From an uncultured Alphaproteobacteria bacterium (GTDB lineage: Bacteria; Pseudomonadota; Alphaproteobacteria; RF32; CAG-239), in NCBI GenBank assembly GCA_944391715.1, contig CALXUP010000008.1:1036-65035 (forward strand): 64,000 nucleotides of DNA, in the 5' to 3' direction. The position numbers were made by a program, and so were the translations under genes. Positions 48,123-59,975 of this stretch are shown here, piece after piece; the stretch's first letter is position 1; every line of letters begins with the position of its first letter. A model generated the notes under the pieces. It did no database searches. It was not told where the DNA came from and saw only the letters and a program-made list of their open reading frames with translations.

Positions 48123-48374
48123 ATGATTAAAGACTTTTATATTTGCCTGGACGATAAGGCATTAAATTACGCACTAAAGCATTTTAGCAATTCTTTTACA
48201 AAGATATTGCGTTGTTATACTGGGTTAGAAGTTGAAATGATTGTTAAAACAATGGAATCCAATAAAAGCAAGAACTTCTATACGCTTCGAGCAACACAAA
48301 GTAGAATTTTAAAAGCAACCATTAAAAACCTTGAAGTCTTAGGTGCTATTTTTGAAAGAGCGGATAAAGAATAA
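48123..48374 (+). CDS. hypothetical protein (83 aa)
   Basis: ORF with an upstream aaggaaataagaaaaaATG. A hairpin follows (cccac...gtggg). Confidence 0.45.
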   Translation: MIKDFYICLDDKALNYALKHFSNSFTKILRCYTGLEVEMIVKTMESNKSKNFYTLRATQSRILKATIKNLEVLGAIFERADKE

Positions 48375-48572
48375 AAAGCAACCCACCAGCTAAGCTAGTG
48401 GGTATTCATAAGTGTGGGTACCCCTTACGGTACCAGTGAATGCCTAAAAGTAGGACTTTCAATTTCCAGTAACTCCTTGATTTTTCTTTGAAGAACACTC
48501 TAGTCGATATTCAAAGAAAACATCACAAAGAGTTGCTAAAAATTTATGAGCAAGTAAAAAAGTTAGAATTTA

Positions 48573-48974
48573 CTAAAACCCATGACTAAGCAAGTACTCA
48601 ATATATTTTTCAAATCCCATTTTCGAAAGATATTTTAAAAATACATCTCTTGGTGGAGTATTAGCCATATAGGGTTTACCAGAACCAGTATACAAACCGC
48701 CACCAGGACCGGTATACAAACCGCCACCAGGCCCCGTATATAATCCACCTCCTGGACCAGTATACAAACCTCCACCAGGTCCTGTGTACAGTCCACCTCC
48801 TGGTCCCGTATACAAACCGCCACCAGGCCCCGTATACAAACCACCTCCAGGACCGGTGTATAAACCACCACCGGGTCCGGTATATGCACCTCCTCCAGGA
48901 CCAGTATATAATCCACCACCAGGACCAGTGTATAATCCCCCACCAGGTCCAGTATATCTATTTCTCGGCCACAT
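48573..48974 (-). CDS. glycine-rich repeat protein: 11 tandem GPGGGLYT octapeptides plus a 37-aa unique C-terminal domain
   Basis: ATG preceded by AAGGAG (8-nt spacing). The unique C-terminus is ...PPRDVFLKYLSKMGFEKYIEYLLSHGF. The repeat units differ almost only at synonymous sites. Confidence 0.7.
   Translation of the reverse strand: MWPRNRYTGPGGGLYTGPGGGLYTGPGGGAYTGPGGGLYTGPGGGLYTGPGGGLYTGPGGGLYTGPGGGLYTGPGGGLYTGPGGGLYTGPGGGLYTGSGKPYMANTPPRDVFLKYLSKMGFEKYIEYLLSHGF
48687..48950. repeat. 24-nt tandem repeat x 11 (coding, imperfect at third codon positions)
   Basis: Read directly from the sequence. All frames are open on both strands because of the periodicity. Confidence 0.95.
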
Positions 48975-49037
48975 AATTTAACTCCTTATTCTAAATATAT
49001 TAAATGGGTGCCCAATTTGAGTTGGGCACCCTGACTC

Positions 49038-49184
49038 TTATTTTTTCTTAGAAGGTTTCTGACTTAAAGCAGAACCTGCTGCAGTTTTACTGGTACTACT
49101 AAAGCGACCATCGCGAAGAACTTTTGATGCTGCGGAAGCTGCTTTTGCACTAGTTACTTTGCAAGTTTTAGAACATTTATTCAT
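49038..49184 (-). CDS. possible 48-aa Lys/Ser/Ala-rich small protein
   Basis: Manual translation gives MNKCSKTCKVTSAKAASAASKVLRDGRFSSTSKTAAGSALSQKPSKKK. AAGGA lies about 9 nt upstream. Flanked by hairpins at 49004-49031 and 49218-49245. Confidence 0.4.
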   Translation of the reverse strand: MNKCSKTCKVTSAKAASAASKVLRDGRFSSTSKTAAGSALSQKPSKKK

Positions 49185-49250: not shown

Positions 49251-49391
49251 CTATCTATCAGGTACAAGAAAGCAAAAAGCCTTCCATCCGTAGTCTCTAG
49301 CATACAAAATCACACCATTTTTCAGGCGAATCTTGGCTGTGTAGAGCCAGCGATAACCGATAGGAGCAGCTTCACGACAACTATGTGTCAT
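49251..49391 (-). CDS. possible 46-aa small protein
   Basis: Manual translation gives MTHSCREAAPIGYRWLYTAKIRLKNGVILYARDYGWKAFCFLVPDR. A strong SD, AAGGAG, lies 7 nt upstream. Confidence 0.45.
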   Translation of the reverse strand: MTHSCREAAPIGYRWLYTAKIRLKNGVILYARDYGWKAFCFLVPDR

Positions 49392-49536: not shown

Positions 49537-49860
49537 TTAAATTAACTCATAAATGCCTTTTCTGTTTTCAACACTCCTAATTAATGGATGTTCTTCCCTC
49601 GACATATTATACGCCTTAAGGGTGATTTGTCGTTTTGTCTTTTTCCCATCATCTTCGTCCTTATATTTACGATAAAATCCGACTGTCAGCTCATCCACAG
49701 AAAGAGGTCTTCCTGCTAATTTAAGCAATTCAATGATTCTTTTCGCAAATATATCCGTGTTAATTCCATCAGCTATATCTGCCGGAATGTCATCTATGGA
49801 GAACAAATCAAATATATCTTTTTCTTTAGTCTCTTCTTCGGATATCAGCGAATCACTCAT
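49537..49860 (-). CDS. hypothetical protein (107 aa), possibly a winged-helix DNA-binding protein
   Basis: Acidic N-terminus followed by IIELLKLAGRPLSVDELTVGFYRKY, which is HTH-like. First gene of a minus-strand string of small ORFs. Confidence 0.45.
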   Translation of the reverse strand: MSDSLISEEETKEKDIFDLFSIDDIPADIADGINTDIFAKRIIELLKLAGRPLSVDELTVGFYRKYKDEDDGKKTKRQITLKAYNMSREEHPLIRSVENRKGIYELI

Positions 49861-50306
49861 TATGTCAACCTTTCATAAATAGACTCGATTATGTCGATGA
49901 TGGTAGCATCATACTTACCCCATGTCAATCCAAAATTATTTTGAATCATGTTTTTTTATTTTTTTGAACACTTGAAAATATTTTAACAGTATTTTTTCGA
50001 GTCTTATGTGGCAAAGTACTTTTCTATATAAACTGCATATTTTTATCCAGATATTTTGTTTTCATTAAGACCTAGTTATTTCAATATGTTATACAAAACA
50101 AATACTATTTTATAAGAATTCTGTATAAATTATATAGATACAAAACATATCTTGCGCAAAGACAAAACGATAAATTTGCGAAAATTTTGATTATTTTAAA
50201 AAGTTAATAAAGCATTAATTGTTGAGTATTAAATTGATGATATCCACAGTTTTTTATCAAAAATGGCAAAACAGAAAAATAATTTTAAAGATTAACACCC
50301 TTTTCC

Positions 50307-50906
50307 TCACACCATCTCAATAATTTTCTTTTGTGCATCGGTGTTGTATTCAATATAGCGTTGAGTCGTGGCAAGAGTGGAATGTCCGGCAAGCATACGG
50401 ATGTCGTTTAAGGTTCCGCCTGCCAAGCTGATATTTTTTGCTGCGGTGGTGATAAAGGTTCTACGTCCACTATGTGAGGAGCAACCTTCGAAGCCGATTT
50501 CTTTATATAAATTATAAAAGAAGTTCACGATTGCTTGTGGGCTGGTCTTGTTGGTACGTTCTGTGGTGATAATCCGATTCGTTAGAGCAAAATGCTCATT
50601 TTTCTTCTGCTCAGCCAACAATTCTGCCAGTAAAATTGCCAAATCCTTATGCAGAGGAATAATGCGGCCGGATTGTTTACCTTTAGAGGCTTTATTAATA
50701 AGATTAATTTCTTGGCTTAATTGTCCTTCTGAATCACAAACCATCAGCCAATTCAAACTTGCGATTTCTTTAGCTCGTAATCCTGCTTTATAACTCAACA
50801 TAAAAATAATTTTATTGCGGAGCGGATATCTTGTCCGTTCCAAGTAACCCAATGTTAGCTCTTGCTGTTTTGGGGTAAGTATTTTTGCTTGTTTATTAAG
50901 TGCCAT
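50307..50906 (-). CDS. short tyrosine recombinase (catalytic domain only, 199 aa)
   Basis: GLRAKEI (Arg I), HSGRRTF (His-x-x-Arg) and LAGHSTLATTQRYIE (His/Tyr nucleophile). No N-terminal SAM-like domain. Confidence 0.8.
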   Translation of the reverse strand: MALNKQAKILTPKQQELTLGYLERTRYPLRNKIIFMLSYKAGLRAKEIASLNWLMVCDSEGQLSQEINLINKASKGKQSGRIIPLHKDLAILLAELLAEQKKNEHFALTNRIITTERTNKTSPQAIVNFFYNLYKEIGFEGCSSHSGRRTFITTAAKNISLAGGTLNDIRMLAGHSTLATTQRYIEYNTDAQKKIIEMV

Positions 50907-56344: not shown

Positions 56345-57455
56345 AAAAAATGTTGCCGACACCTTCATTCTGCTAATTCCATACCAAGACATTAAGATTA
56401 CAAAACCTGAACGGTTTTCGCCCAATCTTGAAACTTTATGGAATTTAGGCAACGCACAATCGGTAAATTGCTCTAGCTACGCGACAGCAATTGAAAAGCA
56501 GAAACATTATTATCCTAAATTATCATTAACTGCTCATCGCCGCGTTGGAGAATATAGCGTCATGTTGCGAATAGAATTTTCGGCTATGAAACTGATTAAC
56601 CAACCGTCAAACAACCTTGAAGAAGTTTGTGATGAGGATTTTGAAACCATCGTTAAGACCTTGCAAAAGCGTATATCTGAACTTGGAGCAAGAGTTTCGC
56701 CAGAAAGCATCCGAAAGGCAAAAGTCACTCGTGTCGATTATGGCAAAAATTGCAAAGTACAGATAAAGCCTGCATTGCTGCTGCAAGAATTAGCTAAAGC
56801 AGACATAAGCAAACGCCTAGACTCTGCCAACAAAACTTACCGTAATGACGGACATTCATTGCATTTTTTAACAACGCATAAGAACGTCGTACTTTATGAT
56901 AAGTTAGCAGACATAAGAAAAGCTAATTTTAGCCCACGCCGGGCTGTAGGTGAGAATGCTCAATTACTTGATTGGACATCTCTAGCCGACGAGCAATATC
57001 TGCGTTTTGAGGTTCAGCTCGGTAATTCAGACACAATTCGGCAAACCTTAAATAAAGCAGAGGTTAACGTCCCAGAATTGACTTTTGAAAATCTATTTCA
57101 AAGTGAAATCTGTCGCAAGGTTAACCTTTATTACTGGGGTGAACTTATGCAAGCGTGCCTGATACACCATCTCTGCAATGAAAATGTCGCAGATTTGTTC
57201 AAGCAGCTACTTAACAACGGCTACAAAATCTTAAAAGCTCTGCAACTCATCGGACTAACCAGTGTCTTAAGTGAAATGGGCATGAGAGAATTTCGCTTCC
57301 ATGCCGGAAAAACACTATCACCTGCAATTTACGACTTGCTGCGGAAAATTAAAGACATCACCCCAAGAGAGGATTGGCTCATGAAGCATTATTTAGAAAT
57401 TCAGAGGATAATAGAAGAAAATAACATAATTCAACTTAAAAGGATGAAAAAATGA
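56313..57455 (+). CDS. putative replication-initiation / Rep_trans-like protein (start uncertain)
   Basis: Pattern KVTRVDYGKN ... VVLYDKLADIRK ... YLRFEVQLGN resembles the RxDxxxD / YDK / RxExxL blocks of the phage CRI / replication initiation factor families. Iteron-like repeats lie upstream. Confidence 0.45.
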   Translation: MKQERRTKSNKKNVADTFILLIPYQDIKITKPERFSPNLETLWNLGNAQSVNCSSYATAIEKQKHYYPKLSLTAHRRVGEYSVMLRIEFSAMKLINQPSNNLEEVCDEDFETIVKTLQKRISELGARVSPESIRKAKVTRVDYGKNCKVQIKPALLLQELAKADISKRLDSANKTYRNDGHSLHFLTTHKNVVLYDKLADIRKANFSPRRAVGENAQLLDWTSLADEQYLRFEVQLGNSDTIRQTLNKAEVNVPELTFENLFQSEICRKVNLYYWGELMQACLIHHLCNENVADLFKQLLNNGYKILKALQLIGLTSVLSEMGMREFRFHAGKTLSPAIYDLLRKIKDITPREDWLMKHYLEIQRIIEENNIIQLKRMKK

Positions 57456-58285
57456 ACAATTTGAACGATTCAATAAAACATATTATTTTGCTAACCAGAG
57501 TGTCCTGCTCCAAACAGGACGTTGAAGAATCAACGGAACAGCAATTGGCTATATGCCAAAAATATATCAAAAACCTCGGCATTAACAAATTTGAGGTTTA
57601 TACGCTGAAAGAAAGTTCTTCACGCGGTAACCGAAAAGAATTTCAGCAAATGATCAACGATATAAAAAAATGTGACGGCTGTACGGCTCTGGTTTTTACC
57701 AAGGTAGACAGGCTCCTACGTAGATTCAATGAGGTACCGGAACTAGACAAACTCCGACAGCAAGGAAAAATTCAGCTTCATGCCGTTAAAGACAATCTGG
57801 TACTTACTAAAGATTCTACGGCTTCAGACATCCACAGATTTCGTCTTCTTGCTGCTGATGCGGAAATGTTTAGTAACCGGATTTCTGAAGAAACCCGTGA
57901 AAAAATATTGATTTGTTGCCAACAAGGTCGCTATCCGGGACTAGCCCCCATTGGGTACAGGAATCAACGAAACAAATATGGGCTGGCGTGGATTTATACC
58001 GATGTACAAAAAGCTTTATTGGTTGCCGAAATATTTAAAAAATTTGTAGAAGGTAACAGTCTTAAACAACTTGCTGTTTGGTGCCTTAAGACAGGATTAA
58101 CTTCTGTCAAGAATAACCCTCTGGGCACTAAAGCCATAATTCGGATTTTGCAAAATCCGTTTTATATGGGGCAATTCCGCCATAACGGAAAACTTTACGC
58201 CCATTATTATGAGCGGTTGGTTAAGGAAGATGTTTGGAAAAAATGCCAAATCCGTCTGAAACATAACCGAGAAAATAAGGAATAA
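57452..58285 (+). CDS. serine recombinase, truncated type (resolvase catalytic domain plus recombinase domain; no zinc ribbon or coiled coil)
   Basis: LLTRVSCSKQD catalytic Ser region. Collinear with the first ~280 aa of the downstream large serine recombinase (VDRLLRR, APIGY, ILQNPFYMG). Confidence 0.8.
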   Translation: MNNLNDSIKHIILLTRVSCSKQDVEESTEQQLAICQKYIKNLGINKFEVYTLKESSSRGNRKEFQQMINDIKKCDGCTALVFTKVDRLLRRFNEVPELDKLRQQGKIQLHAVKDNLVLTKDSTASDIHRFRLLAADAEMFSNRISEETREKILICCQQGRYPGLAPIGYRNQRNKYGLAWIYTDVQKALLVAEIFKKFVEGNSLKQLAVWCLKTGLTSVKNNPLGTKAIIRILQNPFYMGQFRHNGKLYAHYYERLVKEDVWKKCQIRLKHNRENKE

Positions 58286-58393: not shown

Positions 58394-59914
58394 ATGCCAA
58401 GACAGATAAAGAAATTTCAAGCAACAGCAACAAAAGGTATCATTTGGGCAAGAGTTTCATCAAGAGAACAAGAGGATGGCTACTCTTTAGATGCTCAGAT
58501 TGAAAATTCAAAAAGCTACGCCGAGCGTAGAGGAATTGAAATTATTAAAATTTTTGAGATTATTGAAAGTTCAACACAGGGGGATAGAAAACAGTTTCAT
58601 GATATGATTAACTGGGTAAAACGGCAAAAACAACGCATAGCAATTATTTCCGATAAAGTTGACAGACTACAACGACGAGTTTCAGAAGTTCCGGTGCTGG
58701 AAGAATTACGAAAAGCCGGAAAAATCGAACTGCATTTTTCGCGAGAAAATAAAGTCATAGAAAAAGATACAAACGGTTCTGATTTAGCCTGCTACAGAAT
58801 GATTGTTGTTATGGCTGAAAACTATACGGACTGTATTTCGGATAACGTAAAACGGAGCCTTAAACAGATGAGAAAAGAGGGGAAATGGGCTCATAGAGCA
58901 CCCGTAGGTTACCTAAATGTAAAAGACAGCAAAGGTAACAGTGATGTTATTATTGACCCTGACAGGGGGTTCCTTATAACGGCTCTGTTCAAAGAATACG
59001 CAAGCGGAATTTATAACTTAGAACAGATAACGAAAAAAGCACAGGAAATAGGTCTGACAATGCCCGGAAGCAAAAAATTGTACAAACAGACAATACGAAA
59101 TATCTTAAGCAATCGCTTTTATGCCGGAGAGATGTACGGTTATGGCGAGTATTACAAACATCAATATAAAACTTTAATTGACTGGAAGACATTTAACCGG
59201 TGCCAAGAAGTTTTAGAAGGACGCATGAATCATAAAGAACAAAAACACGAACATCTGTTCAAAGGAATAATGAAATGCAAAGAATGCGGTACGATGATAT
59301 CGCCTTACATCAGTATTCATGCGGCAAAAAAGAAAGGCGGAGAAAAAATCGCTTATAAATACCTTTTTTGCCCGAAATGCAAGGGTACGCACATAAATGA
59401 AGGGAAAGGCATTGAAAAAATAAAACAGGCCTTAGGCTCGCTTAAATCGCTTCCTAACGGCGTGTTAGAAAAGATGACGCATTGCCTTCAGGATTTAGTA
59501 TATGAAGACCATAGGATTGAGCTTGAACATAAAAAATATTTAGAGCGAAAATTGCTTGAATGTGACACGAAACAAGAACGGTGGCATGAGCTGTATGCCG
59601 AAGCTAGTATTACACGGAATATACATAGCAAAAAAATAAAAGAACTAGCCCAAGAAAAAGAAAAAATAGCCGAGCAGCTTTTAGGCTACAGTTACTTAGC
59701 ACAACAGAACTTTATAACACTTAAATACTTGACTAGCCTATATTTTCATGCAGACCAGATTTGGGATTTTCCGAAAAATGAGCAAAAACAGAAGATTTTA
59801 AAATTACTCTGTTCGGAAATTTTATTAGACGGGAAAAACATAGTTATTTCAATAAGAAAGCCTATCTTAGAACTGGCTAAAATAGGCTCTTGTCAAATAT
59901 GGCAGGGGCAGTAA
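58394..59914 (+). CDS. large serine recombinase (integrase)
   Basis: 506 aa with WARVSSREQ, VDRLQRR, a recombinase domain, zinc ribbon CKECG...CPKCKG and a coiled-coil region. The last 5 codons (TGG CAG GGG CAG TAA) overlap the 3' end of tRNA-Trp. Confidence 0.88.
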   Translation: MPRQIKKFQATATKGIIWARVSSREQEDGYSLDAQIENSKSYAERRGIEIIKIFEIIESSTQGDRKQFHDMINWVKRQKQRIAIISDKVDRLQRRVSEVPVLEELRKAGKIELHFSRENKVIEKDTNGSDLACYRMIVVMAENYTDCISDNVKRSLKQMRKEGKWAHRAPVGYLNVKDSKGNSDVIIDPDRGFLITALFKEYASGIYNLEQITKKAQEIGLTMPGSKKLYKQTIRNILSNRFYAGEMYGYGEYYKHQYKTLIDWKTFNRCQEVLEGRMNHKEQKHEHLFKGIMKCKECGTMISPYISIHAAKKKGGEKIAYKYLFCPKCKGTHINEGKGIEKIKQALGSLKSLPNGVLEKMTHCLQDLVYEDHRIELEHKKYLERKLLECDTKQERWHELYAEASITRNIHSKKIKELAQEKEKIAEQLLGYSYLAQQNFITLKYLTSLYFHADQIWDFPKNEQKQKILKLLCSEILLDGKNIVISIRKPILELAKIGSCQIWQGQ

Positions 59915-59975
59915 GATTCGAACTCACGACCCTCGGTTTTGGAGACCGATGCTCTACCAACTGAGCTATACCCCT
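59900..59975 (-). tRNA. trnW: tRNA-Trp (anticodon CCA)
   Basis: Manual fold of the reverse complement: AGGGGTA-TA-GCTC-AGTTGGTA-GAGC-A-TCGGT-CTCCAAA-ACCGA-GGGTC-GTGAG-TTCGAAT-CTTAC-TGCCCCT-G-CCA. 76 nt with an encoded CCA. All stems pair, with one G-U in the acceptor stem and one in the T stem. Confidence 0.9.

Follow-up and report, generated by a model that had tools for sequence, protein, structure and literature searches.

The 64,000-nucleotide (nt) stretch of DNA analysed here (the window; contig CALXUP010000008.1 of assembly GCA_944391715.1, from an uncultured alphaproteobacterium) carries, on its minus strand, a gene for a 133-amino-acid (aa) protein made of eleven glycine-rich octapeptides between two conserved caps, and this protein belongs to a family that we predict, with high confidence, to fold compactly and unlike any solved structure. 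The list of open reading frames (ORFs) and their translations place the gene at 48573..48974, and its start is unambiguous, because an in-frame TAA lies 6 nt 5' of the ATG and a Shine-Dalgarno sequence, AAGGAG, 7 nt before it. An earlier note on this DNA had already picked out the 133-aa ORF and its good Shine-Dalgarno sequence, leaving the minus strand unstated, and its layout of the protein agrees with our translation: MWPRNRYT, then eleven units of GPGGG[L/A]YT with Ala solely in unit 3, then the 37-aa tail GSGKPYMANTPPRDVFLKYLSKMGFEKYIEYLLSHGF. The features of the gene are as follows.

48573..48974, minus strand: gene for the 133-aa capped glycine-octad repeat protein (from the ORF, its homologues and polymorphism)
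48951..48974, minus strand: head cap MWPRNRYT, family motif W-P-R-[DN]-x-Y (from conservation and pairing in the AlphaFold2 (AF2) model)
48687..48950, minus strand: eleven 24-nt units encoding GPGGG(L/A)YT (from Tandem Repeats Finder and translation)
48576..48686, minus strand: tail cap GSGKPYMANTPP, family motif P-Y-x-S-N-x-P-P, then a predicted two-helix hairpin, residues 109-118 and 122-130 (from conservation and AF2)
48982..48987, minus strand: Shine-Dalgarno sequence AAGGAG (read from the sequence)

A real gene under purifying selection

Polymorphism and homologues alike show that this ORF is a real gene under strong purifying selection. Eight distinct 402-nt alleles of the same species vary at 64 sites, 56 of them at codon position 3; in the sense frame, 59 of these sites are synonymous and 5 non-synonymous, and all 5 lie inside the tail. 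Selection on the peptide, as originally argued, is therefore borne out. In 22 homologues from very different genomes (GC content 44-75%), the annotated frame stays open throughout (22 of 22), and each of the other five frames is open in at most 2. Could the array nonetheless be non-coding repeat DNA, or could the real gene lie on the opposite strand, where a 65-aa ORF (the PPPGPVYK frame) overlaps the array? Such an ORF exists, and a few homologous loci are frameshifted, yet the same 64 sites are 48 synonymous to 16 non-synonymous when read antisense, stops fall in the other five frames of nearly all 22 homologues, and a conserved non-repetitive tail is found in the sense frame only. Considering the 59/5 polymorphism and the sole consistently open frame, we reject both alternatives, whose chances we regard as negligible.

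Indeed, intact copies dominate at homologous loci. Nineteen further loci of the same species group were found via the flanking genes, plus six with a short allele; 14 of the 19 are intact, with 11 units and 133 aa, one has 12 units, which arose by tandem duplication of a single unit, two are frameshifted and two are cut by contig ends. Four loci (L046, L047, L049 and L050) encode a protein identical to that of the window. Looking for frameshifts and stops at homologous loci, as had been proposed, thus does turn up a few (L048, L051, L012, L024 and P0116), but these are a small minority among intact, constrained copies, and the non-coding reading does not follow. Sporadic frameshifts inside the array, in L048 and L051 of the same species, L012 (Neobacillus), L024, P0116 (E. 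coli-like) and P0107, are candidates for pseudogenes, slippage variants or assembly errors.

A separate clade with 5 units is present in many samples. The 5-unit, 85-aa allele (L001:6001-6258 and relatives, P0042) is common in the source species, and it corresponds to the 11-unit L055-type allele minus units 5-10 exactly. We considered assembly collapse as its origin and find it unlikely, given that only some 14 nt are shared at the junction and that the allele occurs in many samples.

At the DNA level, Tandem Repeats Finder describes the array as period 24, with 11.6 copies, 77% matches and zero indels. The observation that no two adjacent 24-nt units are identical can be widened, as no two units at all are identical in DNA (pairwise identity 15-23 of 24 nt, 16-22 of 24 between adjacent units; longest exact internal repeat 29 nt), and the differences between units, formerly described as nearly all synonymous, are so with the sole exception of the Leu to Ala codon of unit 3. 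The former emphasis on diversification at synonymous sites holds only in part: the units do differ silently and without concerted evolution, but no special diversifying selection needs invoking. Mean identity between units is 18.8 of 24 nt, against 18.5 +/- 0.33 for random codon draws for the same peptide with the codon usage of the window, and 19.1 +/- 0.35 with the array's own usage; as unit identity matches this random expectation, the units are old and saturated at silent sites. This holds for most of 19 family members, in which codon identity between units is near random (mean 0.42 observed, 0.39 expected), with clear homogenisation in two lineages, L044 and L030.

A large family with a fixed architecture

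How widespread is this protein? A word-index search gave 818 matches, and an exhaustive profile search of 1.84 billion representatives (clusters at 50% identity) gave 960 clusters at E<=1e-3, 357 at E<=1e-10 and 57 at E<=1e-30. A locus search with a 10-sequence alignment identified 36 loci that carry a family gene, from genomes of at least 10 phyla; among the loci that come from our pattern search, members with canonical GPGGGLYT units are over-represented. Such a recurrence of one architecture, in hundreds of proteins of many phyla, goes far beyond chance. The claim that no characterised bacterial counterpart exists stands in every collection searched: the protein matches no Pfam or NCBIfam family at E<=10 and no PADLOC model at E<=1, a profile search against PDB sequences returned only low-complexity (Plasmodium) matches, and a literature search for the peptide strings found no paper. 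The protein query also gave no match by tblastn against phage and plasmid collections, a search in which the repeats are masked by low-complexity filtering; plasmid and E. coli copies were recovered with DNA of the Silvania locus L037 as the query, in distant mode. Annotation often misses, truncates or misframes the gene, so that the family is largely invisible in current databases. In E. coli 300709 (L126:8977-9399) the coding sequence has been annotated in a wrong frame, and of 10 listed E. coli records 4 have no annotation at the match; on the Weissella cibaria plasmid pJY33 (L127:208-609) it is truncated to an internal Met. Six long matches that appeared to be fusions (P0207, P0216, P0258, P0273, P0287 and P0292) are unrelated low-complexity proteins and were discarded, as was the long form of P0189, which looks like an over-extended start call.

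What emerges is a large, widespread and undescribed family with a fixed architecture of eleven capped octads. Its signature consists of a head, W-P-R-[DN]-x-Y, octads of the form G-x-G-G-G-[LMA]-[YS]-T, and a tail, P-Y-x-S-N-x-P-P, after which come some 25 residues, among them the conserved L116 and G120. An ungapped alignment of the window protein with 54 relatives (55-80% identity) shows that it has all of W2, R4, A30, P101, Y102, N105, P107, P108 and L116; across these 55 sequences W2, R4 and P107 are invariant, Y7 is present in 52, and P108, Y102, N105 and L116 are nearly invariant. Position 4 of the octad is Gly in 55 of 55 sequences and in every unit, and GGG occupies positions 3-5 of every unit of the window protein. 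Position 6 differs from unit to unit: Ala in unit 3 (45/55), Leu in units 6, 8, 9 and 10 (52-54/55), and Leu or Met in units 2, 4, 5 and 11. The single Leu to Ala change in unit 3 is therefore present as reported, though not as an incidental change; considering that 45 of 55 aligned homologues share it, it is a family signature. With such unit-specific residues, the octads are not interchangeable.

Comparing repeat numbers among relatives, a check proposed at the outset, gives a mode of 11, a second mode of 5 and a range of 5-12. The distance from head to tail is sharply peaked at 11 units (43 of 70 complete proteins in the first set), with 7-10 as minor classes and 12 as the maximum observed.

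Whilst the window protein and most genome-derived copies begin right at the head motif, about one third of complete members carry a long extra N-terminal stretch, which in many cases resembles a signal peptide. Whole subfamilies have Ser for Tyr in most units. Among exported relatives (P0231, P0232, P0242, P0274 and P0213), N-terminal FKBP (E=1.7e-15) or weak PEGA/TPR domains precede a Cys-capped array (C.GYSGPGGPC ... GPGGPC ... WNRP.P.CK) that again has eleven units, without the WPRxxY and PYxSNxPP caps.

Eleven near-identical tandem peptides might also bring to mind a precursor that is cut into octapeptides, to serve as signalling peptides or as a ribosomal natural product. However, the protein lacks a leader or export signal, the gene neighbourhoods share no recurrent maturation enzyme, protease or transporter, the units are not equivalent (the Ala of unit 3, the pattern of Leu and Met), and the most conserved parts are the caps; we therefore give this possibility very little credence.

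Predicted fold

A structure prediction, another of the checks first proposed, yields a compact model. With 55 sequences, the best AF2 model has a predicted local distance difference test score (pLDDT) of 96.6 and a predicted template modelling score (pTM) of 0.87, and all five models reach a pLDDT of 95-97. The repeat region itself scores 94-97, with no DSSP helix or strand in residues 5-100. A two-residue beta-bridge pairs residues 2-3 of the head with 103-104 of the tail, and helices span residues 109-118 and 122-130. In this model, the octads are predicted to pack into one compact domain that is neither alpha-helix nor beta-sheet. From the model we infer that the domain would best be read as a glycine-packed bundle of polyproline-II (PPII) or polyglycine-II type, since such bundles look like this: compact, rich in glycine and devoid of alpha and beta structure. 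Direct contact between head and tail would close the domain, with the C-terminal helices backing it, and a closed, packed domain of this kind would explain both the fixed unit number and the unit-specific signature residues.

Independent support for contact between head and tail comes from exported relatives in which a Cys before the head Trp ('ECPxGT-W') co-occurs with a Cys after the tail Tyr: 14 proteins have both, 5 the head Cys only, 2 the tail Cys only and 84 neither (Fisher p=1.4e-11, a value inflated by sequence relatedness). Foldseek found no match to the first model in BFVD.

This picture bears on an elastomeric, silk-like or phase-separating low-complexity protein, as the GPGGx motif and the Gly/Tyr-rich composition might suggest. 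We find it very improbable: unit-specific residues are conserved across phyla, the modal number of units is 11, the caps are conserved and their Cys residues covary, AF2 reaches a pLDDT of 96.6, and there is neither a spidroin domain nor any Pfam match. The likeness to spider silk and other elastic proteins that the earlier note had drawn is thus superficial, given the fixed unit number, the unit-specific residues, the caps and the compact AF2 model.

The string of small genes and its island

The repeat gene was described as the last in a string of small ORFs, and so it is: ORFs of 107, 46, 48 and 133 aa follow each other in the same orientation, with hairpins between the cistrons. The other features of the locus are these.

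49006..49031, minus strand: 10-bp GC-rich hairpin with a weak T tail, between the 48-aa and repeat genes
48381..48403, minus strand: terminator-like hairpin with a T-run, in the convergent gap after the repeat gene
49038..49184, minus strand: 48-aa Lys/Ser/Ala-rich ORF directly upstream of the repeat gene
49251..49391, minus strand: 46-aa ORF (APxGxxW...YGxxAxxFLVP), with a homologue in a plasmid module of A. baumannii (BLASTP, 33% identity, E=1e-8)
49537..49860, minus strand: 107-aa ORF at the head of the string, in a slot that sister strains fill with XRE (CapH-like) and M78 ImmA/IrrE (CapP-like) genes
49900..49928, minus strand: best sigma-70-like match (TTGACA-17-TACCAT, with TG) upstream of the 107-aa ORF, a candidate promoter of the whole string by consensus match only
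48123..48374, plus strand: convergent 83-aa ORF, found with the repeat gene in all same-species loci

As no promoter-like site comes after the hairpin at 49006..49031, this hairpin probably serves for attenuation or processing. The 48-aa ORF is always linked to the repeat gene within the source species. None of the small neighbours in the window (48, 46, 107, 83, 40 and 71 aa) was found beside distant family members, except for the 46-aa ORF in Acinetobacter; a word-index search with this ORF found close relatives only, and its 48-aa Acinetobacter version (APxGxxW...YGxxAxxFLVP) had no match among the family models searched. The 107-aa ORF has no significant match in Pfam or PADLOC, and its Pfam matches are sub-threshold (E 0.02-0.05).

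The string adjoins a 199-aa tyrosine recombinase that consists of the catalytic domain only (Phage_integrase, 1.3e-17; 50307-50906), within a composite island between secE-nusG and tRNA-Trp (59900-59975). Just before this tRNA gene lie two adjacent serine recombinase genes with Resolvase and Recombinase domains (57452-58285 and 58394-59914). Downstream of the repeat gene are short cassettes (44882-44917/46313-46348 and 47055-47097/47918-47960) marked by a hairpin and then TTGCCA, TTGGCA or TGGCAG; bounded by hairpins and near the tyrosine recombinase, they look like an array of inserted cassettes.

Within the array, Pro is encoded by CCT in 8 of 11 units and by CCA or CCC in the rest, never by CCG, as against 75% CCG among the Pro codons of the long genes of the window. 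This mismatch is consistent with a foreign origin of the repeat gene, and suggests that it was acquired recently from a donor whose codon usage differs. The source genome (1.55 Mb) has one copy, and searches of the 10 other species of the genus and of 26 further genomes of the same family yielded no credible one; a single weak match (E=2.5e-4), inside a 707-aa frame, is probably spurious. Proteins encoded near the repeat gene cluster with those of a human-gut metagenome-assembled genome labelled 'Acetobacter sp. 46_36', and related contigs come from human-gut metagenomes, so that the host is probably an alphaproteobacterium of the gut.

Mobile cargo, often behind an XRE/ImmA switch

In sister strains, an XRE gene (capH model, 5e-8) and an M78 ImmA/IrrE peptidase gene (capP model, 1.2e-19) take the place of the 107-aa ORF, and the 45/46-aa, 48-aa, 133-aa and 83-aa genes are kept in place. 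The head of the string has been swapped between strains of the same species (49537-49860 in the window, L046:1174-2116 in the sister strain), with the breakpoint at the 5' end of the 45/46-aa ORF. A plasmid of A. baumannii (NZ_CP038501.1, L131:2399-4402) has a syntenic module, in which XRE, ImmA/IrrE and 48-aa genes precede the repeat gene, and the products of these three genes are homologues of their sister-strain counterparts (E=9e-16, 3e-22 and 1e-8; 33-40% identity); on another Acinetobacter plasmid, a related XRE-ImmA pair heads different cargo. In gut Firmicutes, genes for an XRE protein and an M78-Fic fusion precede the repeat gene, and the gaps measure approximately 12 nt.

In raw, uncontrolled counts, the recurrent neighbours across 82 loci are tyrosine integrases (12), M78 peptidases (9) and XRE proteins (8), and nothing else recurs; among the 150 genes within two positions of the repeat gene, the commonest PADLOC matches are RmrA, capP, capH, SoFic, PDC-S04 and GajB. 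Individual loci also carry a dCMP-deaminase protein, AIPR, DUF4145, a reverse transcriptase with DUF4062, and RelE/ParE or HipA pairs.

The gene is also found alone. An intact 11-unit copy is present in 18 of 5,426 complete E. coli genomes, and in the one context that we inspected it comes last after the CI, AAA ATPase, DUF4276 and int genes of a P2-like prophage, co-oriented with the repressor-integrase genes. On plasmid pJY33 of W. cibaria (2,365 bp), it is the only gene besides rep, and further members are found on plasmids of Enterococcus, Bacillus, Clostridium and Acinetobacter. On pJIR4150 of Clostridium perfringens (L130), conjugation genes surround a family member, with two ydcP genes on one side and the FtsK/SpoIIIE and MobT relaxase genes on the other. 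Horizontal transfer thus carries the gene as a self-sufficient, one-gene cargo on integrative elements, prophages and plasmids, typically at their integrase/immunity-repressor end and often behind an XRE and ImmA/IrrE (CapH/CapP-like) switch. Accordingly, we predict that it would typically be transcribed together with the integrase/immunity module of integrative elements.

What might the protein do?

The integrase/immunity end of such elements is the usual site of lysogenic-conversion, exclusion and defence cargo. We posit that the protein would be an accessory factor of the maintenance state, taking part in conflict between mobile element, phage and host, in exclusion or defence or in counter-defence, and that it would act stoichiometrically, binding a partner via the Leu, Tyr and Thr side chains at the ends of its glycine segments. 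That it is a non-enzymatic binder is indicated by the lack of any conserved catalytic-type residue across the 55-sequence alignment. This binding role in mobile-element conflict is one that we infer ourselves, with low confidence; with equally low confidence, we take the protein to be neither an enzyme, nor a self-toxic toxin, nor an elastomer.

Two other roles deserve consideration. The protein could be the effector, an RmrT-like toxin, of a toxin-antitoxin or abortive-infection module of the Rosmer type, silenced or neutralised by the XRE/ImmA-protease until phage infection or DNA damage. In support, antitoxins of the ImmA-protease kind form a hub that pairs with numerous unrelated toxins (PMC10440598), XRE and M78 genes precede the repeat gene in sister strains, gut Firmicutes and Acinetobacter, and RmrA, capP and capH lead the PADLOC matches among the 150 immediate neighbours. 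Yet the window has the 107-aa ORF in place of the pair, a place next to an RmrA-type pair, as RmrT has it, is seen only in some relatives, the M78 gene is absent from most of the 82 loci, and the repeat gene occurs unaccompanied, both as the only cargo of a 2.4-kb plasmid and after int in an E. coli prophage. These last two cases suggest that the protein can function alone and is not self-toxic, and as a self-toxic protein would not persist alone, we consider a Rosmer-type toxin unlikely. Moreover, XRE/ImmA pairs are an ordinary immunity module of integrative elements (10.1101/2022.04.27.489752), so that their adjacency may reflect no more than the location of the gene within such elements.

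Alternatively, the protein might serve as a decoy substrate or multi-site acceptor, whose 22 hydroxyls of Tyr and Thr a neighbouring Fic protein would AMPylate or a neighbouring kinase phosphorylate. M78-Fic fusions do lie directly upstream in L016, L033 and L044, a Fic gene is found 2.5 kb upstream in L052 of the same species and another on an E. faecium plasmid, and a Hanks-type kinase is encoded two genes downstream in a Bacteroides locus. (We had considered CapK/CapS for this kinase and rejected it, as CapK is of the anti-sigma-factor kinase type and not of the Hanks type.) On the other hand, most loci, that of the window included, have no Fic or kinase gene, Ser replaces Tyr in most units of whole subfamilies, and the fixed unit number and the cap clasp point to a folded domain and not to a flexible acceptor array; such a substrate role seems to us decidedly improbable.

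Returning to a compact, capped binding protein carried as cargo, several observations weigh against it. The first AF2 run, with 37 sequences, had a best pLDDT of 79.3 and the other four models reached 55-64, and AF2 is prone to overconfidence on idealised or regular repeats. Foldseek searches of both models against the PDB gave a best E of 2.5, for a match that covered the helical hairpin alone, and missed the known PPII bundles; coil-like folds are a weak point of Foldseek. A strictly closed fold of 11 units is not obviously at ease with the other unit counts of the family (5, 7-10 and 12), which include the common 5-unit allele of the source species. Furthermore, many family loci have ordinary metabolic neighbours (nitroreductase, LysE, CPSase, SDR, P450), so that a role in conflict is not implied everywhere, and viral contigs seldom carry a family gene (3 loci in 2.9 million). 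Taking everything together, we lean modestly towards the explanation as a whole, that is, a capped octad family with a compact fold, spread as mobile cargo and acting as a binding protein in mobile-element conflict. Its boldest form, a closed glycine-packed fold not seen before in a stand-alone conflict player that is expressed from a maintenance operon and acts by binding alone, we put forward tentatively and with considerable doubt.

If the predicted fold is true, it would represent a new and naturally abundant way of building a small stable protein from glycine segments, with a countable design rule (eleven octads, two caps, one Ala) that is relevant to protein folding and design. As the gene is repeatedly placed behind XRE/ImmA switches and beside integrases and defence genes, it is a candidate for a single-gene function not yet described in the biology of mobile elements. 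The family is also easy to study, with intact copies in P2-like prophages of E. coli, on a 2.4-kb plasmid of a lactic acid bacterium, and on plasmids of Enterococcus, Bacillus and Acinetobacter.

Relation to known systems

The closest structural parallel that we can draw is with glycine-rich PPII bundles of 6-14 helices, such as those of the snow-flea antifreeze protein (3BOG), the Obg N-domain (1LNZ), the phage S16 adhesin (6F45), the ALK glycine-rich domain and acetophenone carboxylase (PMC12227593). Both are composed of short glycine-rich segments, our family is likewise predicted to be compact without alpha or beta structure, and its 11 segments (plus caps) fall within the range of 6-14. 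However, the family has an octad period, GPGGGLYT, in place of the Gly-x-x triplets of the bundles, it has a head/tail clasp and a helical hairpin of its own, and it gave no match to the solved bundles by sequence or by Foldseek.

Flagelliform silk of spiders is a eukaryotic protein of tens to hundreds of pentapeptides, with proposed elastic beta-spirals and spidroin terminal domains. The family shares with it the GPGGx string alone, and differs in its octads, its modal number of 11, its unit-specific residues, its bacterial and family-specific caps, and its confidently predicted compact model. The RTX beta-roll (GGxGxDxUx) also has a short glycine-rich period with one hydrophobic position, and a 16-residue alternation over two units in P0055, P0065 and P0078 is reminiscent of a two-sided roll. 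Here again the differences are clear: a period of 8 and not 9, Asp only sporadically at position 3 with no conserved calcium-binding Asp, no HemolysinCabind or other Pfam match, and no beta-strands in the modelled repeats.

In its genetic setting, the family resembles the cargo operons headed by XRE and ImmA/IrrE pairs (ImmR/ImmA, CapH/CapP, RmrA), which elsewhere govern mobile-element genes and many immune operons; the order XRE, M78, small cargo is the same in sister strains, Firmicutes and Acinetobacter. The pair is absent at the window copy, the cargo is unlike any known effector, and the capH/capP genes of cyclic-oligonucleotide-based anti-phage signalling systems (CBASS) are usually divergent from their operon, whereas at repeat-gene loci the pair is co-oriented with the cargo.

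For its mode of action, and by analogy only, the family may be set beside the pentapeptide-repeat proteins Qnr and MfpA, which have another repeat and a quadrilateral beta-helix fold and show no homology to the octad family. They too are small repeat proteins that stand alone and have no catalytic residues; their class acts through binding to a partner and is spread on plasmids.

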